64,000 bases of DNA from Verrucomicrobiota bacterium. Its GTDB lineage: Bacteria; Verrucomicrobiota; Verrucomicrobiia; Opitutales; Coraliomargaritaceae. A program made the position numbers and the translations under genes. This document shows positions 7,353 through 64,000 of the stretch, piece by piece. The notes below the pieces were generated by a model that worked only from the letters and a program-made list of their open reading frames with translations, made no database searches and was not told where the DNA came from. Numbering within the stretch: position 1 is the stretch's first letter; every line of letters begins with the position of its first letter. The stretch spans positions 160,001-224,000 of the forward strand of contig JBCBZJ010000002.1 of NCBI GenBank assembly GCA_039815375.1, read 5' to 3'.

Positions 7353-8966
7353 TCATTCGGACCTCAAGCGGACCGATTGGTAAAGATGGTAGTCGAGGAT
7401 ATTTGCATGCCAGCCTTCCACGCTTGGATCAATGAGCAAGCTGGTGACATAGAAGTAAATCGGCATGACCGGCATTTCCTCGAGCAGGAGTGCCTCGGCC
7501 CGTTGGAAAATCTCGAAACGCGCTTCGTTGCCTGTCGCCAGCGTTGCAGCTTCGACGAGCTGGTCGAAATCCTCGTTGCTCCAGTTGGTGTGATTATTCC
7601 CGTTGTCCGTCTCGCCAAGACTGAGGAAGGTGTTTGGGTCGTCGTAGTCGCCGAACCATGCTGCGCGGAGGATATCAAAGTTTCCTGCTTCACGGGTAGA
7701 AAGGTAGGCCTTCCATTCCTGATTATAGAGGGTAACATTGATACCCAATTCTTCTTTCCACATCTGTTGGATAGCGACTGCGATACTACGGTGGGCATCG
7801 CTCGTATTGTAGAGAATTTCAAAAGTGGGGAAACTCTCGCCACCAGGATAACCGGCTTCGGCCAGAAGCTGTCGAGCGAGCTCGGGGTCGTAGATGAGTC
7901 GGGCTTCGGCATTGTAGCTGCCTCCTGTATTTGGTGGTGTAAAGTGATAGGCTGGCTTTTGTCCCGCCTTTAGCACGTGTTCGGTAATCGCTTCGCGATC
8001 AATGGAGTAGGCGAGTGCTTTGCGAACCCGCGGATCGTTGAGTGGCTCCCGGGACGTATTGAACATGTAGTAGTAAACGCCGAGCGCCGTATCGAAGCGC
8101 ATGCGTTCCGGCATGTTATCCTGATACCAATTGACTCGATGGGGTAGGACGGTCGAGGTGAGATGAAGATGCCCGGCACGGAAAGCCCGTTCTTCAGCAT
8201 GGACCTGGATGGGTAAAAAGTGAACACCGTTGAGCCAGACGGAATCCGGGTCTCGAAAGAAGGGGTTTCGATCTGCGTAGATGGAGCTGTTAATGCGCCA
8301 TTCTTCGAGCTTGAAGGGCCCGTTTCCAACGAAGTTTTTTGGTTTGGTCCATTCCGAGATTCGAGCAGTCATGCCGCCGTGTTTCTCAATGGTCGGTGGG
8401 TGCACCGGCCACCAAGTGTAATGTGTCAGAAGGCTGAGGAAATAGGGAGTTGGCTGTGCCAACTCAATCACCAGTGTGCGTTCGTCAGGGGAGGAGACAC
8501 CCACCTCGGAGAAATCACTCAATTCTCCTTTGTGGAAGCGGTCGGCATTCTTCATGTCGTAGAGCATGTAGGCATAGGGCGCGCCAAGAGCGGGTGAAAG
8601 AATACGCTCAAAGGAGTAGATGAAATCTTGAGGAGTGACGGGATCGCCATTAGACCAACGTGCATTCGGGTCGAAGTTGAAGGTGTAGAAACACCCATCT
8701 TCAGAGATGCTCCAGCTCTTCGCCACGGCTGGAATGACCTCCATGGTCTCGGTGTTGAAGGTCGCGAGACCTTCATAGAGAGCGAGTGTGACATGAAGTT
8801 CGGTTAGACCGGTGATTAGGTGCGGATCCAGCCCGGCGGGTTCTGTGCCGATACCAAAGTAGAGTTCGCGGGCTTCGTTACCGCGCTCGACGTTGGTTTT
8901 CCGTGGTTCACAGCCGCAAAGCGCACAAAGCGCTAGTAGAAGGGCAGCGAGACGGCATGATGACAT
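7353..8966 (-). CDS. oppA: Oligopeptide ABC transporter substrate-binding lipoprotein
   Basis: Lipobox-like LCGC, LDP, ARWSNGDPVT, GNGPFKL, VRKAL; SBP family 5. Confidence 0.9.
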   Translation of the reverse strand: MSSCRLAALLLALCALCGCEPRKTNVERGNEARELYFGIGTEPAGLDPHLITGLTELHVTLALYEGLATFNTETMEVIPAVAKSWSISEDGCFYTFNFDPNARWSNGDPVTPQDFIYSFERILSPALGAPYAYMLYDMKNADRFHKGELSDFSEVGVSSPDERTLVIELAQPTPYFLSLLTHYTWWPVHPPTIEKHGGMTARISEWTKPKNFVGNGPFKLEEWRINSSIYADRNPFFRDPDSVWLNGVHFLPIQVHAEERAFRAGHLHLTSTVLPHRVNWYQDNMPERMRFDTALGVYYYMFNTSREPLNDPRVRKALAYSIDREAITEHVLKAGQKPAYHFTPPNTGGSYNAEARLIYDPELARQLLAEAGYPGGESFPTFEILYNTSDAHRSIAVAIQQMWKEELGINVTLYNQEWKAYLSTREAGNFDILRAAWFGDYDDPNTFLSLGETDNGNNHTNWSNEDFDQLVEAATLATGNEARFEIFQRAEALLLEEMPVMPIYFYVTSLLIDPSVEGWHANILDYHLYQSVRLRSE

Positions 8967-9032
8967 AGGCCTTAGTCAAGCTGACTTAGGAAAGTCATCA
9001 AGTGGTAATATCTGTGTTTTTGAGGATAACCT

Positions 9033-10496
9033 TTACAGCAACGGCACCAGCAGATGCACGAGGTCCTGACTCAATCTTGAGGGTATGAAGGCTGCATCGC
9101 ACATGGCTTCTTGGTAAGTGATACAATCCTTCTCGAGCGCTTGCGCCCACTGGGTTAACATTTGAACATCAGTTGCCGTGTAGTGGGCCAGGGCGATCTC
9201 GAAGTTCACGAATAGGGAACGTATGTCGATATTGGCTGAGCCCATTAGGGCGACAAGGTCATCAGCGAGGATGAGCTTCGCATGCATCATGCGAGGTTTG
9301 TAAAAAAGAATTTCGACTCCAGCGGCATCAAGCTGTTTCAGGGTGCGGTGACGTGCAATATCGGCGAGCCTTTGGTTGGAGTGCAGAGGCAAAATAACCC
9401 GGACCTGTCGTCCAGTGTGTGCTTTGACAATCAGTGACTGCAAAATGACTTCATCCGGAATGAAATAGGGTGTGATGATCGTTAGAGACTGCTTGAATTC
9501 CTGTATAATACGGACCAGCTGTTCCCAAAGTGGGTCGTTAGGAATATCAGGTCCGCTGTTAATGACTTCTATTGTGCTGTTGCCTGCCTCCTCCGGGACG
9601 TATTGCAGAAGCTCGCGATATTGCGCAGGCTTCTCCTCAGCGGCAAAGGCCCAGTCTGCGATAAAGGTGCGCGTCAGCTCGGCGACCGCCGGGCCTTGAG
9701 TGACGACGCTGAAGTCGGTGAATCGATCCGGGTCCGGCCAGTTGCCCAAGAAACGATTGTCTAGATTTTGCCCGCCTGTGATGGCACGAAAATTATCGAA
9801 AATAGCGATTTTGCGATGATTGCGCAAATTGGAGGAAGTCTGTGTCTGCAGCGGCAGCACGGGCATAAACATGGCGACCTCGCCACCGGCTTTTCGTATT
9901 TTGTGACGAGCGAGACGTGTGCAGTTCCAGCTGCCAAGAGAGTCGAGCAAGAGTTTTACGGTTACGCCTTCGCTTGAGCGTTTTGATAAAAGATCGGTGA
10001 CGGCTTTTCCACTTCGATCATTTCCCAGTATATACGTAGCGATGTGGATGGTATGTTCGGCAGCTTCGATTTCTCTGCAAAGCCTTTCAAATGTGGCCTT
10101 ACCGTCAGGAAGAAGTTCACAATAGTTGCCCTTACTGCAGCTTTGCTCCATCTCAGGAGCAAGGACGTAGGGCGAGGGCGTCATCTCTATCTTTTCGGGG
10201 TCTGAAAGCGCACGAGCATGTCGATTGACCTTCGATTTGATACGGGCCATTTTACGACTCTTCCGTCCTCCGAATATGAAGTAGAGCGGCACTCCGACGA
10301 AGGGAAGGAACAGTACGAGCAGCAGCCAGGCGAAAGTATTGCTCGGACTGCGCTTTTCGGCGGAGACACGGCGTATGATCAGTGCGGCACAGACGAGTCC
10401 AAGGATTACTGACAGATTGGTTAGGAGAAAAAGGAGTCCGCTACCGAGTAGATTGATCAGTGATCCGAAAAGGTTAACTTCCAGCCATTTCCACAT
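9033..10496 (-). CDS. cls: Cardiolipin synthase (PLD family)
   Basis: N-terminal TM helices and two HKD motifs (NHRKIAIFD, MHAKLILAD). Confidence 0.88.
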   Translation of the reverse strand: MWKWLEVNLFGSLINLLGSGLLFLLTNLSVILGLVCAALIIRRVSAEKRSPSNTFAWLLLVLFLPFVGVPLYFIFGGRKSRKMARIKSKVNRHARALSDPEKIEMTPSPYVLAPEMEQSCSKGNYCELLPDGKATFERLCREIEAAEHTIHIATYILGNDRSGKAVTDLLSKRSSEGVTVKLLLDSLGSWNCTRLARHKIRKAGGEVAMFMPVLPLQTQTSSNLRNHRKIAIFDNFRAITGGQNLDNRFLGNWPDPDRFTDFSVVTQGPAVAELTRTFIADWAFAAEEKPAQYRELLQYVPEEAGNSTIEVINSGPDIPNDPLWEQLVRIIQEFKQSLTIITPYFIPDEVILQSLIVKAHTGRQVRVILPLHSNQRLADIARHRTLKQLDAAGVEILFYKPRMMHAKLILADDLVALMGSANIDIRSLFVNFEIALAHYTATDVQMLTQWAQALEKDCITYQEAMCDAAFIPSRLSQDLVHLLVPLL

Positions 10497-53539: not shown

Positions 53540-54835
53540 ATGGCCGAAAATATTAACTTACAGCTCCAGCAACACCGCGATGCCATCGACTCGATCGATA
53601 ATCAGGTTGTTGATCTCCTGAATCAACGCGTCCAGCAGGATGGCGGCCGCAGCGAGGAAGAGGTTCTCGAGAAAGTTGCCCGGATGAACAATGGGCCACT
53701 TTCTGATGAGAGCCTCCAAGCAATCTATACCTCGTTGATGGTTGCAGGTATGGCGTTGACAGCAGAAGCCCGAGACCCGGATGAAGTGGATCAATCAGAT
53801 CTGAAGATTATCAGTTTGCTCAGCCAGCGGGTGAAGGAGGCAGGTGCTATTGGGAAGATTAAACATGCCAACGGTGCAGATTACTACGATCCAACGCGCG
53901 AGGCCATTGTCATGGCTAAGGTCAAGGGGTTGAATACGGGTCCGATCAGCGACGCGACGATCCAGTCCGTTTATCGTGAGGTTATTTCCGGGTCTATTTC
54001 TTTGGAGAAGAAACTTGTAATCGGCTACCTCGGACCCGAAGCGACCTACACACATCAGGCTGCTATCCGAAATTTCGGTGTGAGTCTGGATTATCGTGCA
54101 ATCAAAACGATACCAGATGTTTTTGCTGAGGTTGAGAGTGGTAAAGCGGATTATGGTGTCATTCCGATTGAAAACTCTACAGAAGGAGCCGTTTTCCACT
54201 CTATGGATATGCTGGTCGAGTCCGAGCTGCATATTTGTTCCCAGGTCTATTTGCCGATTGAGCATTGTTTGATTTCGCATTCGCCACTCGATGCAATCAA
54301 GGAGGTCTGCTCCAAGGATCAGGCGATCGGTCAATGCCGCGATTGGCTGCATGCAAATCTTTCAGATGTCGCCAGCAGGGACGTGGTCAGCACTGCCGAA
54401 GCCGTTCGATTGGCGAGCAAAGATCCCTCGCTCGCGGCGATCGCTAGTTCACTTTCCGCGCAGTATTATGGCGTGCCTATCGTTGAACGGGGGATTCAGG
54501 ATCGAAATGACAACGTCACGCGCTTTCTTGTGATTGGCAAAACGCGGGCGAAACCCCTTTGTCAGGGGCTTGATAAAACGAGCTTGGTAATCTCTCTTAA
54601 GGACCAACCAGGTGCGCTGGAGAAAACGCTCCGTCCATTCGCTTCTCGCAGTCTAAACCTAAGTAAAATCGAGTCACGGCCGAGCCGGAAGAAGGCCTGG
54701 GACTATCTCTTTTTCATCGATTTTATCGGGCACTATGAAGACGCTGTGGTGCAGGATGCGTTGAAGGAGCTCCGTGAGCACTGCGAGTTCGTCAAATGGC
54801 TGGGTAGCTATCCGAATTTGCCGCGCGGCGACTAG
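53540..54835 (+). CDS. pheA: Chorismate mutase / prephenate dehydratase with tandem AroQ module
   Basis: Two AroQ-like repeats; YLGP..TY, PIENSTEG, NVTRF; ACT domain IESRP. Confidence 0.92.
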   Translation: MAENINLQLQQHRDAIDSIDNQVVDLLNQRVQQDGGRSEEEVLEKVARMNNGPLSDESLQAIYTSLMVAGMALTAEARDPDEVDQSDLKIISLLSQRVKEAGAIGKIKHANGADYYDPTREAIVMAKVKGLNTGPISDATIQSVYREVISGSISLEKKLVIGYLGPEATYTHQAAIRNFGVSLDYRAIKTIPDVFAEVESGKADYGVIPIENSTEGAVFHSMDMLVESELHICSQVYLPIEHCLISHSPLDAIKEVCSKDQAIGQCRDWLHANLSDVASRDVVSTAEAVRLASKDPSLAAIASSLSAQYYGVPIVERGIQDRNDNVTRFLVIGKTRAKPLCQGLDKTSLVISLKDQPGALEKTLRPFASRSLNLSKIESRPSRKKAWDYLFFIDFIGHYEDAVVQDALKELREHCEFVKWLGSYPNLPRGD

Positions 54836-54876: not shown

Positions 54877-55947
54877 CTAAGCGGCTGGGGTGGGGGCTCT
54901 TGAATCCTGACGATCCAGCTCCCTGTTCATCAGTTGGTGGAATCCCTTAGGATAAAAAGCAAGCAGACTGAGCAGAGGGTAACCGAGCGGCAGACGGTAG
55001 CTATCCCGATGTGAACGTAGATAGATATATTCATTGCCTGCATTCAAATGGTGGTCTGCATGGCGCTGCACCATAAAGGTTTGGTAGTTGGAAAAACGGT
55101 GGTAGGAGTCCCACGAGTGATGCGCGGCGACTTTCTCGCTTTCTTCCCGCTTGAGCCCATAATGTTCAAGGTAGAAGGCCGCCTCACTAAAAAGAACCGA
55201 GAAAAGCGCTATCGCGGTATAAAGTAGAAGGCCGGGGATCCCTCCGAGAGAGAATGCGATGCCAAGCATAAGCACTGGGATGCCGAAGTAACTCAGATAA
55301 GGATTCTTCAAGCTGAACCGTTGGATTTGATGCTTCCGAATCCGTTCGTCGACAATGCGGCAGCTTTCCGCATATGACTTAGGATACGACTCGACGAGAT
55401 ATTTCCAGTAAGACGCATCGCGTGACGGAGCGTGGTTGTCCTTTTCGGTTGCGACGTGGGCATGATGGTTGCGGATATGAGCAATTGGGAAGTGCCAATA
55501 GCCGAAGGCATTAAAAGCAAATTGCCCGAAGGCGACTTTGGTTTTCTGTTTGCGATGAATGAGCTCATGGCCAGCAGCAGCAAGGACGCCGCCAGCACAG
55601 GCAAAGGATACAATCGCAACTGTAGTCTCCCACCAGTTCAAAGTGTCAAGAACTGCGATCAGCCACAGCAGGCAGACGAAGAAGAAAACTACATAGGTTA
55701 GGGTGGAGTAGGATAGAACTTCCTGAAGCTTGGGATGAACCTTCTCCTGCTTGATCGTCAGCATATGTTCCCCGACGAAATGATCGAGCGCTGGAACAAC
55801 AATGAACATCATCAGAGTCGGTAGGAGCATCCAGTAGGATCCGCCGATCAGCCCCAGGGCCGCGAGAGCTAGAATGAATTGCGGGAAGAGTCCCCGGATA
55901 AGGGCTTCGCGGTTCTGTAGATCGAATAACTTGATGGTTTCAGGCAT
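54877..55947 (-). CDS. AlkB/XylM-like membrane diiron monooxygenase/desaturase
   Basis: HELIH, HIRNHH, YLEHYGL, QRHADHH, LP.GYP. Confidence 0.85.
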   Translation of the reverse strand: MPETIKLFDLQNREALIRGLFPQFILALAALGLIGGSYWMLLPTLMMFIVVPALDHFVGEHMLTIKQEKVHPKLQEVLSYSTLTYVVFFFVCLLWLIAVLDTLNWWETTVAIVSFACAGGVLAAAGHELIHRKQKTKVAFGQFAFNAFGYWHFPIAHIRNHHAHVATEKDNHAPSRDASYWKYLVESYPKSYAESCRIVDERIRKHQIQRFSLKNPYLSYFGIPVLMLGIAFSLGGIPGLLLYTAIALFSVLFSEAAFYLEHYGLKREESEKVAAHHSWDSYHRFSNYQTFMVQRHADHHLNAGNEYIYLRSHRDSYRLPLGYPLLSLLAFYPKGFHQLMNRELDRQDSRAPTPAA

Positions 55948-55957
55948 TTTCCGTTCG

Positions 55958-57145
55958 CTAGAAACGATATCCTAAAGAGAGCGAAAAGGCGGTGCTATCA
56001 AGGTCGTAGTCTCCGTTTACGGTAGGAAAGTTATTGCCTGATACACGACGGGGGTCAGCAACGGCTTGCTGGAAAGTCAACATCCAGAAAAAATGTTCCA
56101 GGTCCTGTCCCACGCCTATCGAAAAAAAGTGGCGATCTTCGTCTGGGACAATCGGTAGGAAGTCGTCATCAGGAATCGCGTTTTCGACGAAGGTGTAACC
56201 TGCGCTTAGATGCCAACCATTCTCGAAGAAGCGGGTGGCGCCGAACTCCCAAATGTATGCAGAGATCCAATTCAATTGATAAGAGGCAGCGGGCACGCCA
56301 TCAATCGTCAGCTCATTGACCCGGTCCCAGTTGGTCCAGTCCAGGTTGAATTCGAAGTTCCACTTCTCGTTTGGCTTATAGGCGTATCCGGCAACAATTG
56401 ATTCTGGAAAAATAAGATCGACTTGTGCATCCACTGGGAAGCCCATTGTGAGCAAGCCCTGCGCAGTGCCTTCATATGTAAGTTCCGTTTTGGCCTGATA
56501 GTTGAGACCAAAGCTATGCTGTTCGCTTGGCCTCCAAAGGACAGAAACCGTGTAGCCGAAAGTCTGGTCGTCGCCTTCATACTCCAGTGCGTTGGTAAGA
56601 AGCTCGACATCGCTGTCGTCGAAACTGACGCCAATACCGACTGAAAGCGAGTTATTGATCTGCCAGGAAAGGGTGGGCTGGTATTTGACGTAGGCCAGTT
56701 GTCCTTCGTAAGGAACTGCAACCCCCAATAATCCGGATGCAAAAGATGCATCGCTGCCCCAATCCGTGCCAAGTGCGAAGGGAGCATATGCGCCAAAGCC
56801 CACGGCTATCGGCAAATCTTCGAAGTTGTGTGCAATGTAAAGGCTCGGGATGGGTTGAAACGCATCGTCTATGTCGTCGCTTGCGCCGAAGTCTCCTTCA
56901 TATTCAAACGTCGCTGAGATAGCGAGTAAGTTAGCACGAAATTCCGTGCCTTCAATCTGGATGAGACCGGCGGCGTTGTAGAAAATCGCTGATGCGTTGT
57001 CAGCCGTGGCGGTAAATGCGTTCCCGCGTGCAGTAGCGAACGCGTCGAGATAGGCAAAGCGAGTGGCGGCCGCTTGTAACCCGTAAGGAGGGATCGTGAC
57101 GAAAAGAAGGCTTAGGGCTATGAGGCTTGTACGTAGTGAAATCAT
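55958..57145 (-). CDS. FadL/OmpP1/TodX-family outer-membrane channel for hydrophobic compounds
   Basis: Signal peptide, ARGNAFTATADNASAIFYNAAGL, terminal LGYRF; ATG at 57145 overlaps the upstream stop (ATGA). Confidence 0.87.
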   Translation of the reverse strand: MISLRTSLIALSLLFVTIPPYGLQAAATRFAYLDAFATARGNAFTATADNASAIFYNAAGLIQIEGTEFRANLLAISATFEYEGDFGASDDIDDAFQPIPSLYIAHNFEDLPIAVGFGAYAPFALGTDWGSDASFASGLLGVAVPYEGQLAYVKYQPTLSWQINNSLSVGIGVSFDDSDVELLTNALEYEGDDQTFGYTVSVLWRPSEQHSFGLNYQAKTELTYEGTAQGLLTMGFPVDAQVDLIFPESIVAGYAYKPNEKWNFEFNLDWTNWDRVNELTIDGVPAASYQLNWISAYIWEFGATRFFENGWHLSAGYTFVENAIPDDDFLPIVPDEDRHFFSIGVGQDLEHFFWMLTFQQAVADPRRVSGNNFPTVNGDYDLDSTAFSLSLGYRF

Positions 57146-59172
57146 CTGGTCGAAGGAATCAAAAGTGAAGGGAGTTCGATTTCGACATCCCATTCGTGTT
57201 TATCGTCTCTCGGATAGAGCCGAAGGTAACCTCCATGCTCGGATACGATCTTATTTGCAACGGAAAGGCCCAGCCCTACGCCAGTATAGCGTGTTGTGAA
57301 GAATGGCTCGGCGGCTTGTTCGATTACTGTAGAGCTAAGACCCGAACCGCCGTCTCGTAGTTTAATACGTAGAATACCTTCCTCATCTTCTGTGAGAACA
57401 ACCTTGATCTCCTGCTTGTCGGGTGCGGCTTGCATTGAGTTGATAAACAGCTCTTCGATGGCGTAAGTCAGTGCCTCACTATTACCCTTTAGCTGCGAGC
57501 TTCTCGACTGATTGTCGAAAGTGAGCTGCGCACTGGAATTGCCAAGTTGACTACGAGCCCGGTCAAATGCGTCTTCTACAAGTTGCGCAAGCGCAAGTTC
57601 ATTACTTCCGGCCAGCGAGGACTGAGCCATGTAGAGCATCTGCTCGCTGAAACGTTTGATGCGGGCAGTCTCCTTGATGATAGAGTTTTTAAGAGAGGCC
57701 TGGAAGTTTGGTTGATCGATTTTTTTGTCGATTAACTGAGCATGGGTTGAGAGCGGGACCAACGAGTTGCGAATCTCGTGGGCAAAGCGTTCCGCGATTA
57801 AGCTGATAAGTTTTTCCTTTGTGCTATCGACTGCGCTTTGCTTGTTGGCCTCGATCTTTGTGAAATCCTCGACGATGACCATCGTCGGTCGCGGAAGGAG
57901 GACGAGCTCGCCCTTCTGGGTGAAAGGGAATATTGAAACACGGAAGATACCGTCACCTTCCGGACCATCTATTTCGAAGGGCTCGGGCAGTTCACCTTTC
58001 TCCACTGCGCGGTGTATCGGACTGGCAAGCTTATGTGGGAGTTCGGCAAAGTCGACCTGTCTCTTAGTATCCGAATTTTCGATACGCAAGAAACGTCGAG
58101 CGGCATCGTTGGTATAGAGGATCTGAAGGTCTTCACCGCAGACAAGCGCCCCACTTGACATAGAGTGCAGGACATTTTCGATTAGTTGACCATGCTGTGC
58201 GAGCTCGCTGTGCAGACGGCTGTTACGAATCGCGAGTCCAAGTTCTTCCATTAGAACGTAAAGTAGCTCAAGCTCGTCATCAATGAAGCTTCGCCCCGTC
58301 ACCGGTCCGTTGAGGACTGCGATTCCAATCGAGCCTTCACGATCGCTGATCGGAATAGCGATATCACAGCCTAGAATTGCAAATTCCTTCTCGGTATTTC
58401 CGGCTGACACGCTGAACGGCGGTGCAGTTTGCCTCTGTCTATGAAGAATACGCGGCCGTTCGCTGAGCTCTTTGCCAATTCCCACATCTCGGCTCAGTTG
58501 AAAACAATCAATCAAATCTGTGGGCAGTCCGAGTGAGGCAATGCATTCGAGATGATTCGTTGTGCTTTTCCGGACGACACTTTGCTTAGCTGAGCTTTCG
58601 AGAAAGATACCGATTCGACTGAAGCTGATGTGATCTCGAAGCTTGAGAATGAAGTGTTGAGTGAATGCTTTGTAGTCCAGGCTGAAGCTAAGGATGTGCG
58701 ACAGATCCCGAAGGGTTCGGAGTGTTGAGGCAGTATCGGCTGTAGTCTTGACTATTGGATATTTTGAACCTTCCGGTGGTTTGGATAGATGGCTCTCCTC
58801 GGCGACCGGGTCTTTTTGTAGAAGGCGTTTCAAGGTCCGAACCGGCACAGGCTCGGCGAAGTAAAGATCGGCACCTTCATCAAAGGCGGTGGTTTCACTG
58901 GCAAGGCTGTATTCCGGCACGAGAACAATGGTAAAAACATCTTCCCGTGTTTCGCGAATATCGCGAAGATGGCGCTGCATGATTTTCTCACCGCTTTCGG
59001 CGTAGATGATTATCATGTCAAAGGCACCTCGCTTGATTGCAGATTGCGCTTCATTCGGGGAGCGGCGGATTACGATTCTTTGCTCCGGAGCCGAAAAGGC
59101 TTCCCGCAGATTCAGCGGGATAGAGGCTTCGTTTCTAATGAATAGAAAATGACTCACGTGATCTTTTAACAA
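57142..59172 (-). CDS. Soluble histidine kinase: pseudo-receiver, GAF, PAS-like, HisKA, HATPase
   Basis: H-box AHEIRN, N-box FINSMQA, DGGSG, PFFTT, GVGLGL; REC-like N-terminus (AFDEGADLYFAEPV); no TM segments. Confidence 0.85.
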   Translation of the reverse strand: MLKDHVSHFLFIRNEASIPLNLREAFSAPEQRIVIRRSPNEAQSAIKRGAFDMIIIYAESGEKIMQRHLRDIRETREDVFTIVLVPEYSLASETTAFDEGADLYFAEPVPVRTLKRLLQKDPVAEESHLSKPPEGSKYPIVKTTADTASTLRTLRDLSHILSFSLDYKAFTQHFILKLRDHISFSRIGIFLESSAKQSVVRKSTTNHLECIASLGLPTDLIDCFQLSRDVGIGKELSERPRILHRQRQTAPPFSVSAGNTEKEFAILGCDIAIPISDREGSIGIAVLNGPVTGRSFIDDELELLYVLMEELGLAIRNSRLHSELAQHGQLIENVLHSMSSGALVCGEDLQILYTNDAARRFLRIENSDTKRQVDFAELPHKLASPIHRAVEKGELPEPFEIDGPEGDGIFRVSIFPFTQKGELVLLPRPTMVIVEDFTKIEANKQSAVDSTKEKLISLIAERFAHEIRNSLVPLSTHAQLIDKKIDQPNFQASLKNSIIKETARIKRFSEQMLYMAQSSLAGSNELALAQLVEDAFDRARSQLGNSSAQLTFDNQSRSSQLKGNSEALTYAIEELFINSMQAAPDKQEIKVVLTEDEEGILRIKLRDGGSGLSSTVIEQAAEPFFTTRYTGVGLGLSVANKIVSEHGGYLRLYPRDDKHEWDVEIELPSLLIPSTR

Positions 59173-59226
59173 TATGTTCAGCTTTTTTTTAGGATTGCAA
59201 AGCTGTTTTTCTCGAAGGTTCCCTGT

Positions 59227-61002
59227 ATGCGACGGACAATGGGTTTAATGGGGATTTATGCGACGATTTATGGCCTGAGAGCTTCACCAATAATAAACGT
59301 TGCCAGCCTGATCCGATTCCAACAAAAAAAATCGGCATTGGATAAACTTAAGGCATCTTCCACACCAGATGTGACCAGTCAACGCGTTACCTTTGAGGGT
59401 CCACACGGCATGCAGATCGTCGCCTACATTGACGAAGGGCCTAAGGAAGATTGGAACGGTAAGTTCATTCTACTGGCCCCTCGCTATGGTGAGTCGAAGA
59501 AGAACAACCTCCAATTGAGCTACGTTCTTGCTTCGAATCACTTCAAAGTGATGCGCTTTGACCATACCAATCACATAGGTGAAAGCGACGGCACGATGGA
59601 GTGGTTTACCATTCATGGTGCTGCCGAGGATATCATTGCCTGTGCCAATCATCTTGACATGTACTATGAGCCTAAGGAGATCGCTTTAGTCTCGTTGAGT
59701 CTGTCGTGCCGGAGTGGTTTGAGGGCCTGTGCGCGCGGTTGCCCAATTTCCCGTTTTGTCAGTGTGGTGGGGATGGTCGATTTGGGAAAGACCCTGAACG
59801 CAATCTATGACCGCGACATGTTGAAGGCCTACTCGGAAGAGAAATGGGAGAGAGTTGATATTCTGGGATTTGATATCAATGGCGCAAATTTCTACGACAG
59901 TCTATTCCGGGAGAATTTGCAGGATCTTTCCGGAGCAATTGAAGATGCCAAAAAGACGAGTGTGCCACTGCTTCACCTTCACGCAGAGAATGATAAATGG
60001 GTGGATAGCAATGACGTCGAGGAGCTGATATCTCATTGTCCAAAGGGCCAACTCGAATTTGTTTCCGGTGTAGCACATGAGATAAACGAGAATCGTGATG
60101 CGTTTGCCAATGTCATTGCGCGGATCATTGCCTTTTGTGCTGGAGTTGAGAGTGGGCCGGTTCGCCAACCTGAAAAGCGGTGTCTGATGAAGCAGAACAA
60201 GGCTGAGCGTGAGGCTCTTCAGAAGATGTTTTCTTTCAATCAATCGGAGGCGGAATTCTGGGGTGATTATCTAAGCAAATTTGGAATTATTGAAGAGGCA
60301 GAATTCTACGTTGAGTATTTTAAGAACATGTCGGAACTGCTTGGCGCGGTAAGGCCGGGAGATACAGTACTGGATGCAGGCTGTGGTAACGGTTTCTTTG
60401 GTCTTAGCCTTTTGCATAGTGCAGCAAATCAAATAGCACCGGGCGGTCCAATTTACTATTGTGCCTTGGATCTTTCTCATGATGGGCTGGCCACGTCCTA
60501 TCGTCGTCATGTTAGCGAATATTCCCGATTGATGCAGATGAGTTTGCGGGCTTCGGGAATCGGAATGACCTATTCAAGGGTTAATCTTGACGGGAGTGAG
60601 CAAGAAGAGGACTACCAGTTGCATTGTCGTGATGGAAGCTTTTCAAAAATCTGCAGCAGTCTGGTCGTTTCCTATCTTAAAGACCCGAGCTGGTTGTTCC
60701 GCGAGATCTTTCGACTGCTTAAACCCGGAGGTGTTGCAATTGTATCCAGTATGAAACCGGGATGCGACATGACAGTTCTTTACCATGAATCGATCACGCA
60801 GAAACACACCTCTAATCGGGAATCGGGAGGACGCGCGCTGCTCAGTGCAGCGGGAAAGATTAAATTGAAGAAGGACTCGGGTATTTATCATTTTTTTAGT
60901 AGAGCTGATCTGCAGAGAGCCGCATTTGATGCGGGATTCACGGATATTTCTGCGCATAGGAGTTTCGGCAATCAAGCGAATGTTGTCCGCCTAGTTAAGT
61001 GA
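59227..61002 (+). CDS. LuxD-like acyl-ACP thioesterase fused to class I SAM methyltransferase
   Basis: HIGESDG, SLSLSCR, VGMVDL..TL, TSVPL....ENDKWV and HEINEN align by eye with LuxD; VLDAGCGNG and RLLKPGG mark the methyltransferase. True start may be downstream (59338 or 59371). Confidence 0.82.
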   Translation: MRRTMGLMGIYATIYGLRASPIINVASLIRFQQKKSALDKLKASSTPDVTSQRVTFEGPHGMQIVAYIDEGPKEDWNGKFILLAPRYGESKKNNLQLSYVLASNHFKVMRFDHTNHIGESDGTMEWFTIHGAAEDIIACANHLDMYYEPKEIALVSLSLSCRSGLRACARGCPISRFVSVVGMVDLGKTLNAIYDRDMLKAYSEEKWERVDILGFDINGANFYDSLFRENLQDLSGAIEDAKKTSVPLLHLHAENDKWVDSNDVEELISHCPKGQLEFVSGVAHEINENRDAFANVIARIIAFCAGVESGPVRQPEKRCLMKQNKAEREALQKMFSFNQSEAEFWGDYLSKFGIIEEAEFYVEYFKNMSELLGAVRPGDTVLDAGCGNGFFGLSLLHSAANQIAPGGPIYYCALDLSHDGLATSYRRHVSEYSRLMQMSLRASGIGMTYSRVNLDGSEQEEDYQLHCRDGSFSKICSSLVVSYLKDPSWLFREIFRLLKPGGVAIVSSMKPGCDMTVLYHESITQKHTSNRESGGRALLSAAGKIKLKKDSGIYHFFSRADLQRAAFDAGFTDISAHRSFGNQANVVRLVK

Positions 61003-63125
61003 ATACTTATTTAACTATATCCTCATTAGTTAATACATTTTCAGGGCTACTTTTACTAAGTCTCCTATTTTCTTCGCGTGGAATCGACCGAGTAAAGTCG
61101 CGTTTCATACTGCTCACAATCAGTGTAATCGGCTGGTCTTTTTCTTATTTCCTCTGGCGTATTTCGGACTCCGCCACACTTGCGCTTTTATATTGTCAAT
61201 TTCTCACAGTCTTCTCGATCTTTTCGCCGATTACCTTCCTTGATTTTTGCTTGGAGCTCGTCGGCTTGCGTCGGCGGATGCCAGTCTTTCTTGGATATCT
61301 GCTTTGCCTGGTGGTCGCTCTTATGGTCGCAGCCGGATATGTCGTTGAAGGTGTCGAATCTAAATACGGACATGTATTTTGGCCTGTGGCCGGTGAACTG
61401 TTTTACGTCTACATCATCTGCTTTGTACTTACGGTCGCTTTAAGTTGCGCCGTTTTGTTTTACGGCACGAAAAAGCACATTGGGCGACGTGCTTCAGACT
61501 GCACTTTTGTATTCTGCACCGGGTTGATTGGTTTTCTTGGAGCAGCGACCAATTTTCCACTTTGGGTCGATATCCCAATGCAGCCCTTCGGTAATATCCT
61601 CGTTGCTGTCTATCTCGTGACGATCGGACACGGATTATACAGTCAGCGGATTTCCGGTATCAGCACCGATGTGTATAAAGCCTTCGTTGGTATTTTTTTG
61701 AACGCTTCAGCGACCTTGTTCTATCTGATCCTGGTGGCGCTCTACCGCACCTTGATTGAAGAACCGATGGCAAGTGACGAATTTTGGTTCCATGGGGTCT
61801 TTGCGTTTTCTGCCAGTGCCTTAGTCTTTTGGGGTGTCCCGAAATTGAAAGTTCTAAGCGAGCATATTGTGGAAGGGGTGTTTCGTCGGGAGATCAATAC
61901 TGCCCTTGCAGAGCTGCAGGCCCTCCCAACCGAGCTTTCGGAGCTTGGCGAGATTGATGCAATTGCTCAGGTCACCGCCGACACAATAAAGTCTTCACTC
62001 GGTGTCTCCGGTGTAGCCGTGTATCATAATGACGAATTTTCCAGCGAGTTTCGCTGTATCTATTCGAGTGGATCCTTCTCCAGAGATGTAAATGGCTACA
62101 AGATTTTAACCACGAATCCAGTTGTCGAGAGATTGAGTCTAAGGCCGGAGTGCCTTGTTCTGAATCACGTCGCTGATGACTATCGAGAAGCTTTTTATAA
62201 GGCACTCGTTTTGCTAAAGAACGACCTTGGGCTGACAGTTGTGGTGCCTATTTTCGCGAGCCATCAAATTTATGGCCTCATCTTTTTGGGTGGGACAGAT
62301 CAGCCACGCCCATGGTCGGAGGAGGAAATTGCTACGCTTTTTAACATTGCCGCACAGATAGGATTAAACATGCGAGCTCGTGACTTTGAGCGACGTTCCA
62401 GTGAGATTGATAAGCTGGTCGCTCTGGGCACGATGGCTGCAGGACTCTCTCATGAGATTCGTAATCCATTGGTATCGATACAGACCTTTGCATCTCTGCT
62501 CAAGAAAGGGAAAAGTGTTGAAAAGCTTCCGGACGATTTTCGCGAAGTCTTGGTGCGTGATGTGAAGCGAATCGAGAGTATCGTTGATGGCGTAGCCTCA
62601 TACTCCAAAAACCAAAAAGGGCGAAAAGCACCGATTGATATACGCGAAGTAGTCGAATCCAGTTTAAGGATTTACGAACAAGCTGCTGATGCTCAAGGGA
62701 TTGAATGGAAGCTGACGTTACCCCGAGAGGGTGAGGCCATCGTTATGGCGAATTTTGATCAGATGGTGCAGGTGTTCAATAATCTGATTGAAAATGCGAT
62801 TCAGGCGCTCGCTGTTCGCGCAAAAGGTGAAATTGAGATTGATTTAGGGTTACGAAATCTCAGTAAACAGGGCTCTCGACGATGGGTTGAAATTTCTATC
62901 GCGGACAATGGTGACGGGGTTCCTGATTCGATTATCGACCGCATTTTTGATCCCTTCATGACGTCGAAGGATACGGGTAGCCGTGACGAAAAGCAGGGCA
63001 TGGGTCTTGGGTTGGCCATTTCGAAACGGATTATCGAGAACCATGATGGGGCAATCTCCGTATCAAATTTTCCTGGTGGCGGTGCAAAATTTGTTGTCTC
63101 GCTGAGGCTTTTTGATTCGAAGTAG
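60999..63125 (+). CDS. Multi-TM sensor histidine kinase with GAF domain
   Basis: Many hydrophobic segments in the N-terminal ~280 aa, GAF, H-box GLSHEIRNPL, NLIENAIQA, DNGDG, FDPFMTSK, GMGLGL; GTGA overlap with the upstream gene. Confidence 0.9.
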   Translation: MNTYLTISSLVNTFSGLLLLSLLFSSRGIDRVKSRFILLTISVIGWSFSYFLWRISDSATLALLYCQFLTVFSIFSPITFLDFCLELVGLRRRMPVFLGYLLCLVVALMVAAGYVVEGVESKYGHVFWPVAGELFYVYIICFVLTVALSCAVLFYGTKKHIGRRASDCTFVFCTGLIGFLGAATNFPLWVDIPMQPFGNILVAVYLVTIGHGLYSQRISGISTDVYKAFVGIFLNASATLFYLILVALYRTLIEEPMASDEFWFHGVFAFSASALVFWGVPKLKVLSEHIVEGVFRREINTALAELQALPTELSELGEIDAIAQVTADTIKSSLGVSGVAVYHNDEFSSEFRCIYSSGSFSRDVNGYKILTTNPVVERLSLRPECLVLNHVADDYREAFYKALVLLKNDLGLTVVVPIFASHQIYGLIFLGGTDQPRPWSEEEIATLFNIAAQIGLNMRARDFERRSSEIDKLVALGTMAAGLSHEIRNPLVSIQTFASLLKKGKSVEKLPDDFREVLVRDVKRIESIVDGVASYSKNQKGRKAPIDIREVVESSLRIYEQAADAQGIEWKLTLPREGEAIVMANFDQMVQVFNNLIENAIQALAVRAKGEIEIDLGLRNLSKQGSRRWVEISIADNGDGVPDSIIDRIFDPFMTSKDTGSRDEKQGMGLGLAISKRIIENHDGAISVSNFPGGGAKFVVSLRLFDSK

Positions 63126-63130
63126 GTCTG

Positions 63131-64000
63131 ATGTCGGAATTGCCTGAAATCGGAACGGACAATCAGAGTGTAGAACCTGCAGCATTGGCGGGTCATTATC
63201 TGAGGGTTTTTGCGAGTGCAGTTGCTTCGATGTCAGATTTTGAAGGATTTATCGATGCATTGAATGGTCTGGTTCGGGACGATACTTTCTTTCTCGGCAC
63301 TGCGGAACTCTCGAATGCCTTCGCTGATGGTGACGAAAAGTTTCCAGACTTTGAGACTCTGGACAGTTCTGAGACAGTTGTCGCGGTTGCAGGTGATGCG
63401 GGAAATTTGGGATACCTTAAATATTCCGGTCGACAGGACAAACAACCCTTTGGAGCAGAAGATATGCACCTCATGGGTTCGATTGCCGGTTTTATCTCAG
63501 CTCTTATTTCACAAGCGCATGAATTCAGGCAAAAGAGTAAAGCTGACAGGGTACTTCAATTTCTGATCAACCAGTTGCCGTTAGGAGTGATTTGCTTTGA
63601 TTCTAAGGGAGATGTTTTAGTCCAGAGTAATTCTGCAGCGAATCTCGTAGGTGATGCGGGAGCTGCGATTCTTGCGGAGTTGATCAGTTCGGAAAAGACT
63701 TTCGTCAAGGATCGTGCGAGACTCCACTTTGAGGCCGGAGGAAAATTGGTTTATGCAGAGGGTCGTCGATTGCAGGTCGAAGAGGGCCTGAAGGTCGTTG
63801 CCTTTTTGCTCTATGATATGTCGGCTTCGCGCGAGAAGTTGTTAGTTGATCTAGAACGTGAAGCTTACCGAAGCGAGGCTCGCGGCACGTTTCTCACGCT
63901 CGCTCTCCTTGAGATGGACGACGAAGCAGGCAAGGTGTATCGCACACTCCGCTCTGCCGCCAAAAGCCTTCAGATTGATGTGAGCAAAATACAACCGGTA
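63131..64000 (+). CDS. GAF-like/PAS-like signalling protein, possible degenerate GGDEF domain (partial)
   Basis: Open from ATG 63131 to the window end: PFGAEDMHLMGSIA (GAF end), LINQLPLGVICFD (PAS start), LEREAYRSEARGTFLTLALLEMD (GGDEF-like start). Confidence 0.7.
   Translation, partial: MSELPEIGTDNQSVEPAALAGHYLRVFASAVASMSDFEGFIDALNGLVRDDTFFLGTAELSNAFADGDEKFPDFETLDSSETVVAVAGDAGNLGYLKYSGRQDKQPFGAEDMHLMGSIAGFISALISQAHEFRQKSKADRVLQFLINQLPLGVICFDSKGDVLVQSNSAANLVGDAGAAILAELISSEKTFVKDRARLHFEAGGKLVYAEGRRLQVEEGLKVVAFLLYDMSASREKLLVDLEREAYRSEARGTFLTLALLEMDDEAGKVYRTLRSAAKSLQIDVSKIQPV

Follow-up and report, generated by a model that had tools for sequence, protein, structure and literature searches.

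The window, that is, the whole stretch of 64,000 nucleotides of a Verrucomicrobiota genome that was analysed, carries towards its right-hand end a gene cassette of two divergent arms, in which one gene encodes a LuxD-like hydrolase and a class I SAM-dependent methyltransferase (MT) in a single polypeptide. The features of the locus are listed below.

54877..55947, minus strand: AlkB-like alkane monooxygenase/desaturase, 10 bp behind fadL
55958..57193, minus strand: FadL/OmpP1-family outer-membrane transporter
57142..59172, minus strand: divHK, divergent soluble kinase with the domains REC-like-GAF-PAS-HisKA-HATPase, 676 aa open frame
59173..59337, no strand: short intergenic gap in the sequence, separating the two divergent cassette arms
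59338..61002, plus strand: LuxD-like hydrolase/class I SAM methyltransferase fusion, 554 aa, candidate signal synthase
59374..60150, plus strand: LuxD-like alpha/beta hydrolase domain of the fusion, triad Ser 59698, Asp 59992, His 60076
60235..60999, plus strand: class I SAM-dependent MT domain of the fusion, motif I VLDAGCGNG at 60367-60393
60999..63125, plus strand: 7TM-GAF-histidine kinase, 708 aa, candidate signal receptor, 7TM domain about 60999-61673
63131..64000, plus strand: 5' part of the gene for p477, GAF-PAS-(unassigned)-REC, 477 aa, ending at C37:224564
C37:224621-225748, beyond the window and after p477: REC-HisKA-HATPase kinase, 375 aa

The open reading frame of the fusion, 59227-61002 (+), counts 591 codons and reaches upstream to 59227. 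Its first 37 codons are probably untranslated, since the database gene call (P0002) places a TTG start at 59338, giving 554 aa, and the homologues begin near the same TTG. The start of the 7TM kinase gene overlaps the stop of the enzyme gene. On the other arm, the AlkB-like gene (E 3e-34 against solved AlkB) is a local add-on; it was rejected as part of the cassette core, being absent from the clusters of the 79 related loci described below and unmatched by the same query in five kin, and its product could alter or break down a lipid signal. Among the surrounding genes, a prephenate dehydratase of 431 aa at 53540-54835 (+) has an apparently doubled chorismate mutase-like N-terminus, and past the window end (G000:C37:225848-244945) panD is followed by a CobN-type chelatase and an apparent cobalamin uptake/synthesis cluster, which is unrelated to the cassette.

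The sequence-only reading of this gene had claimed a LuxD-type N-terminal domain with an intact triad and had named as checks a search of the LuxD family versus generic hydrolases and a comparison of a structure model with LuxD. Both bear it out: the domain matches Pfam Acyl_transf_2 (PF02273) with E 7e-24 and 85 bits at a cut-off of 20.3, reaches a probability of 99.5% against the LuxD profile, and has as its best solved sequence relative the LuxD of Vibrio harveyi (1THT, E 4e-19; runner-up 3e-5). In the structure model of the fusion (pLDDT 85.6, pTM 0.84), 1THT ranks first for the hydrolase domain both in Foldseek and in VIA-align (Z 29.6, rmsd 3.0, 278 aligned; next structure Z 27.3), the fold lying about 2 Z units nearer LuxD than small-molecule esterases in the latter comparison. 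A codon check found the earlier positions exact (Ser158 at 59698, Asp256 at 59992, His284 at 60076, VLDAGCGNG from 60367), and the three residues align with 114, 211 and 241 of 1THT, of which Asp211 and His241 are what we take to be the other LuxD catalytic residues. Ser114 is described in the available part of the source as the acylated residue of LuxD, which itself gives free acid as its product (PMC6279958). On these sequence scores the N-domain is nevertheless a LuxD relative and not a LuxD orthologue, because it obtains 83 bits with the NCBIfam LuxD equivalog model vs a cut-off of 420 and shares 24% identity with plasmid-borne LuxD (about 22-30% with LuxD overall). The absence of luxA, B, C and E, originally claimed for the window, extends to the genome, which is 99.9% complete and has a single PF02273 gene: the luxE and luciferase families give 0 matches in it and luxC two matches only, both below the cut-off, whereby a remnant of a lux operon is ruled out. 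The AHL synthase family likewise gave no match, but as it matched in no control either, this negative carries no weight.

The C-terminal domain proved in domain and fold searches to be the class I methyltransferase that had been read there, with the DxGxG motif, the acidic residue after strand 2 and the seven-strand fold all present. To judge from its sequence, it is a separate subfamily with only generic class I matches. In the MT-profile search, the E-value drops off from 1e-51 to 1e-24 across three rows, and the strong matches resemble pieces of the fusion on short contigs; no PhcB-named protein is among the 120 matches listed. The BioC model gives 30 bits (cut-off 185), the fatty-acid O-methyltransferase model Mtf2 matches weakly in 6 of 38 members, far under its cut-off, and the top PDB sequence match of the profile is LahSB, a peptide methyltransferase (E 2.5e-12). 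The fold search leaves class I folds with substrates of many kinds tied at Z 19-20.

The fusion belongs to a sizeable family. A total of 137 homologous proteins matched; of the 120 matches listed, those with a name all come from Verrucomicrobiota, mostly Opitutia. Cultured carriers among the named matches include Coraliomargarita sinensis, C. parva, Lentimonas and Thalassobacterium maritimum. With a profile, 544 representatives were obtained at E <= 1e-30; chance or artefact is ruled out by these hundreds of full-length homologues. Atlas clusters with both domains come most often from Verrucomicrobiota, Omnitrophota and Nitrospirota. All 119 scorable close homologues conserve the triad together with the D-G-G motif of the methyltransferase, and the triad is kept by 100 of 127 representatives and by 19 of the 36 that exceed 900 aa. 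N-terminal additions among 28 hand-chosen long representatives are PilZ (18), REC (4), PAS (4) and polyketide cyclase/START (2), the last being of a lipid-binding type. Several long PilZ/REC-type homologues have no Ser-Asp-His triad (P0247, P0248, P0251, P0258, P0262, P0267) and are possibly pseudo-enzyme regulators. Within the family of the window's genome, the system occurs in 8 of 10 genomes of at least 3 Mb and in 1 of 18 smaller ones, these genomes being kin and not independent. A metagenome scan with one distant protein as query gave no match, and the broad family alignment yielded no motif fit for scanning. Plasmid searches with the enzyme and the 7TM domain returned LuxD, generic methyltransferases and three Ca. 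Manganitrophus records only; the two Ca. Manganitrophus loci examined have no fusion annotated next to a kinase.

The most consistent feature of the locus is the coupling of the enzyme to the 7TM kinase. From 101 relatives found in the genome collection 79 loci were kept, and in these together with our own locus, a set biased by search patterns taken from Opitutia, the kinase lies directly downstream of the enzyme in 79 of 80, the one miss being a contig edge. The other cassette genes are present less often (divHK in 67, p477 in 64, the REC-kinase in 59 and FadL in 58), many of the absences being contig ends. A metagenome motif scan gave 103 stretches, 80 of them with flanks, which after removal of 9 truncated ones and 11 with less than 400 bp downstream left 60 distant loci, on contigs without taxonomy. 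The matching 7TM subfamily lies downstream in 55 of these, at most 300 bp away in 46, and the remaining 5 have no 7TM gene inside 2.5 kb; several distant loci carry REC proteins, sigma-54 activators or a divergent FadL. In a phylum survey of 301 genomes, the enzyme was found in 12, with an adjacent 7TM in 12/12 (E <= 1.3e-62). Two further strong 7TM copies in that survey have no enzyme beside them (L189:about 8000-10088 and L190:6875-9760), and G213 has no match to the fusion gene anywhere; such solo receptors may be eavesdropping 'solos'. As to the receptors themselves, the 7TM profile has no solved structural relative; the 7TM kinases of L105, L126, L132 and L147 are about 970-1000 aa long, and L105 and L147 have a tandem pair of 7TM domains. 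The Opitutia cassette lacks a DNA-binding regulator, and the surroundings of the enzyme show no conserved genes of lipid catabolism or storage.

The enzyme and the 7TM domain also share a history that the kinase core and the rest of the cassette do not follow. Over the 46 loci with a complete set of parts, the tree distances of hydrolase, MT and 7TM domain agree at rho 0.87-0.91 (partial MT-7TM 0.82). For the 7TM domain, the value is lower with its own kinase core (0.69), with p477 (0.58), with FadL (0.48) and with divHK (0.47), whereas the correlations within the group of kinase core, p477, divHK and FadL lie at 0.80-0.90. Part of the agreement between enzyme and 7TM arises because adjacent DNA is linked, yet divHK, which is equally adjacent to the enzyme, scores 0.61 and does not track it. 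In AU tests on 30 of the 46 loci, with clades chosen post hoc after the trees had been viewed, the trees of kinase core, divHK, FadL and p477 contain a 9-row family-level clade that the 7TM domain (p 2e-5), the hydrolase (0.007) and the MT domain (0.014) reject, and a 16-row clade shared by enzyme and 7TM is rejected in all three of the further parts tested. Most simply, this would mean that lineages have exchanged enzyme and sensor domain as one matched unit, whose right-hand break falls within the kinase gene.

For p477, complex modelling supports a predicted interaction with the methyltransferase domain. The model of the enzyme with p477 scores 0.71 (best control 0.00), on a scale whose mark is reached by 116 of 157 solved pairs and by 2 of 215 mismatched pairs, with a contact agreement of 97% and a partner pLDDT of at least 76. 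In the predicted docking, a strand of the p477 GAF domain lies on the MT edge strand, the MT surface being formed by the helix after strand 2 and by strand 3. That the enzyme is fused to REC and PAS domains in other lineages is in keeping with a regulatory role. The protein accompanies enzyme and 7TM kinase in split cassettes, in which L201, L203 and L206 hold enzyme-7TM-p477 and L200, L202 and L204 hold degenerate ketosynthase-divHK-(FadL)-REC-kinase; it was absent from the 4 ketosynthase-type genomes searched, a control genome being positive. A degenerate GGDEF in its middle part was dropped as a resemblance by eye to which profile comparison gave no support.

Elsewhere, the place of the fusion is taken by other enzymes. 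Among 351 Opitutales genomes 19 have the enzyme, 24 divHK and 18 both. In three of the 6 divHK-only genomes (G099, G313, G437), an ICMT-family methyltransferase and a FabF-like ketosynthase stand directly before the 7TM kinase, in the synthase slot, as given here.

L191:6407-8262: ICMT-family methyltransferase and FabF-like ketosynthase
L195:5146-6968: ICMT-family methyltransferase and FabF-like ketosynthase
L197:4612-6545: ICMT-family methyltransferase and FabF-like ketosynthase

Of the others, G463 has a ketosynthase and a 7TM kinase cut by the end of the contig, G045 pairs a ketosynthase-like gene with a membrane kinase to which the 7TM profile gives no score, and G338 has nothing in the synthase slot. 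The four 7TM domains of the ketosynthase-type genomes, from two families, form a clade apart from the enzyme-bearing loci (support 96/92, or 100/100 when one solo is included). The Cys-His-His of the ketosynthase is kept in G099 and G313, and Cys is changed to Ser in G437; fusion-bearing genomes have a leftover ketosynthase without the Cys and/or the first His in 4 of 4 aligned. The pair of ICMT-type methyltransferase and ketosynthase is a candidate for a second type of lipid-signal synthase. A candidate third type, a non-canonical ketosynthase before a 7TM-GAF kinase, comes from 14 weaker 7TM matches fetched from other Verrucomicrobiota families (L209-L222): a ketosynthase-like gene is directly upstream in all 14, a divergent FadL in 10 (3 cut by contig ends) and a divergent REC-kinase in 11, and, counting the Cys and last-His columns only, the Cys is kept in 14/14 and the last His replaced, mostly by Asn, in 12/14. 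L218 and L219 have a class I methyltransferase after the REC-kinase. Because ketosynthases fill the synthase slot elsewhere, the cassette chassis is one that has been repeatedly loaded with acyl-chain enzymes. An ester product is not implied thereby, because ICMT-type enzymes beside ketosynthases O-methylate, in the available part of the source, alkylpyrones and resorcinols rather than carboxylates (PMC9827899).

In the model favoured here, to which we assign a probability of roughly 0.5, the fusion and the 7TM kinase make and sense a diffusible fatty-acid methyl ester signal. Ser158 would accept from acyl-ACP a long acyl chain, which may be of the 3-hydroxy or 3-oxo kind, and free the acid, as homology to LuxD and the triad suggest, following which the fused methyltransferase would esterify the carboxylate to a neutral, membrane-permeant ester. 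The ester would then exit the cell and enter neighbours via the FadL porin of the cassette. There, the 7TM domain, whose coupling to and co-evolution with the enzyme are observed, would bind the ester and shift the activity of the kinase, with a putative phosphorelay through REC-kinase proteins whose domains are observed and include no DNA-binding domain. According to the structure model, the GAF-PAS-REC protein p477 would dock on the methyltransferase and feed back on signal output. The response would presumably be density dependent, and exchange of the enzyme and sensor block between lineages would give rise to differing signal dialects. The parts of this model are not equally firm: that the enzyme is a signal synthase seems rather probable, and that its product is a fatty-acid methyl ester has about an even chance. 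The earlier reading stands as regards the LuxD type, the triad and the absent lux partners, and its proposed path from acyl-ACP over the fatty acid to the methyl ester is still the likeliest chemistry; as to the role, a signal synthase is likelier than bulk production of methyl esters, because the gene is locked to a 7TM kinase in a FadL/two-component cassette.

The evidence for coupling of enzyme and 7TM holds equally for a signal synthase with a non-ester product, in which the hydrolase would act as an acyltransferase or cyclase and the methyltransferase would O-methylate a pyrone, enol, phenol or acylated alcohol or amine. This alternative, unlikely but deserving serious consideration, draws on the replacement modules, in which a ketosynthase occurs alone or together with an ICMT-type enzyme, such pairs being described in the part of the source drawn upon as making O-methylated alkylpyrones or resorcinols (PMC9827899), and on the polyketide cyclase/START domains fused in some homologues. 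The fusion itself, however, has no condensing domain, the standard Opitutia cassette has no ketosynthase, and LuxD frees the acid in the available account of it (PMC6279958). A quite unlikely reading dispenses with an autoinducer altogether and has the cassette sense or process external or membrane lipids, which FadL would import and the enzyme turn over as esterase and methylase while the kinases report their level; the conservation of FadL (58/80), the AlkB-like oxygenase added behind it here and a hydrolase fold near esterases are in line with this, but it explains poorly both the swap of an enzyme and sensor block with a break inside the kinase gene and the replacement of the enzyme by biosynthetic ketosynthases.

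With methyltransferase and serine hydrolase joined in a single polypeptide beside a receptor, a predicted contact to p477, and the peptide methyltransferase LahSB (E 2.5e-12) as best PDB match of the MT profile, one may also think of a writer and eraser of protein methylation similar to CheR and CheB, by which p477 or the kinase next to it would be adapted. The domain search, however, matched neither CheR nor CheB in the fusion, the p477 contact as we read the model is at the edge strand rather than the substrate pocket, and FadL, the START domains and the ketosynthase replacements indicate lipid, so that we hold this to be highly improbable. Hardly credible is a plain metabolic enzyme forming methyl esters whose regulators merely control its expression: its domain logic is enough to lead from acyl-ACP to the ester, but the Opitutia cassette lacks conserved lipid catabolic or storage genes and a DNA-binding regulator, and its sensor domain has evolved together with the enzyme.

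A broader proposal, for which we would put the odds slightly below even, is that Verrucomicrobiota and further phyla with few cultured members share a widespread family of systems for lipid quorum sensing, with one chassis (FadL, 7TM-GAF kinase, REC-kinases) and at least three unrelated synthase modules (the LuxD-like hydrolase-methyltransferase; the ICMT-type methyltransferase with ketosynthase; the ketosynthase alone), synthase and sensor being swapped as a dialect cassette. A search of the literature outside subscription journals and supplements found no description of the fusion or the cassette, and the available parts of two PilZ surveys do not mention them; lipid quorum sensing is known, and synthase, receptor subfamily and modular chassis are likely undescribed. 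To our knowledge, signalling by fatty-acid methyl esters has been characterised solely in Ralstonia and relatives. If the proposed model is true, a separately built ester signalling would exist in marine, soil and groundwater bacteria, for which we found no described signalling system, with synthase, receptor, porin and feedback partner all named. It would provide the first ligand class for the orphan HisKA_7TM subfamily, a likely non-luminescent origin of the LuxD fold, a dialect-type exchange of cassettes for a lipid signal and, as a by-product, a one-chain enzyme leading from acyl-ACP to the ester.

Compared with known systems, the enzyme resembles LuxD (PDB 1THT, PF02273) in its fold, the order of its motifs and the positions of Ser, Asp and His, and differs from it in carrying a methyltransferase, in scoring below the equivalog cut-off and in belonging to a genome without luxCEAB. 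In the agr and comQXP systems, the signal-making genes co-vary with the 5' sensor part of the receptor while the kinase core tracks the host. The likeness to these pherotype cassettes is one of evolutionary pattern only, namely the co-variation of signal genes and sensor part, as they use peptide signals in Gram-positive bacteria.

Among lipid signals, the DSF system (RpfF-RpfC-RpfG) is described, in the available parts of the sources, as using an acyl-ACP thioesterase activity to free a fatty-acid signal that a multi-pass membrane kinase senses, with a REC domain of the sensor binding and controlling the synthase and with matched RpfF/RpfC variants (PMC7912708, PMC4504480). A fatty-acid signal released by thioesterase action (here putative), a membrane kinase, binding of the synthase by a REC-bearing protein (here predicted) and matched variants are the features in common, whereas RpfF is of the enoyl hydratase type, the DSF signal is an unmethylated cis-2 acid and an HD-GYP protein serves as output. 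The present cassette has none of these, the domain search having found neither a crotonase-type RpfF nor an HD-GYP protein in the cluster. In the Ralstonia solanacearum complex, the Phc system (phcB-phcS-phcR-phcQ) uses PhcB to turn fatty acids into 3-OH PAME/MAME by methylation, and PhcQ influences signal output, as far as the available text of these papers describes it (PMC7912708, PMC8578825, PMC6989110). There, too, a methyltransferase gene is followed by a membrane sensor kinase, and the cluster includes a REC-kinase and REC proteins without DNA-binding domains; here, in contrast, the methyltransferase shares its chain with a LuxD-like hydrolase, 7TM and GAF domains make up the sensing part of the receptor, and FadL and a second soluble kinase belong to the cassette. 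No PhcA-type LysR lies in the cassette. By analogy, the cassette would work most like phcBSRQ as portrayed in the accessible portions of the literature (PMC7912708, PMC8578825, PMC6989110, PMC13532016, PMC11960443, PMC9102662), and partly like RpfF/RpfC.
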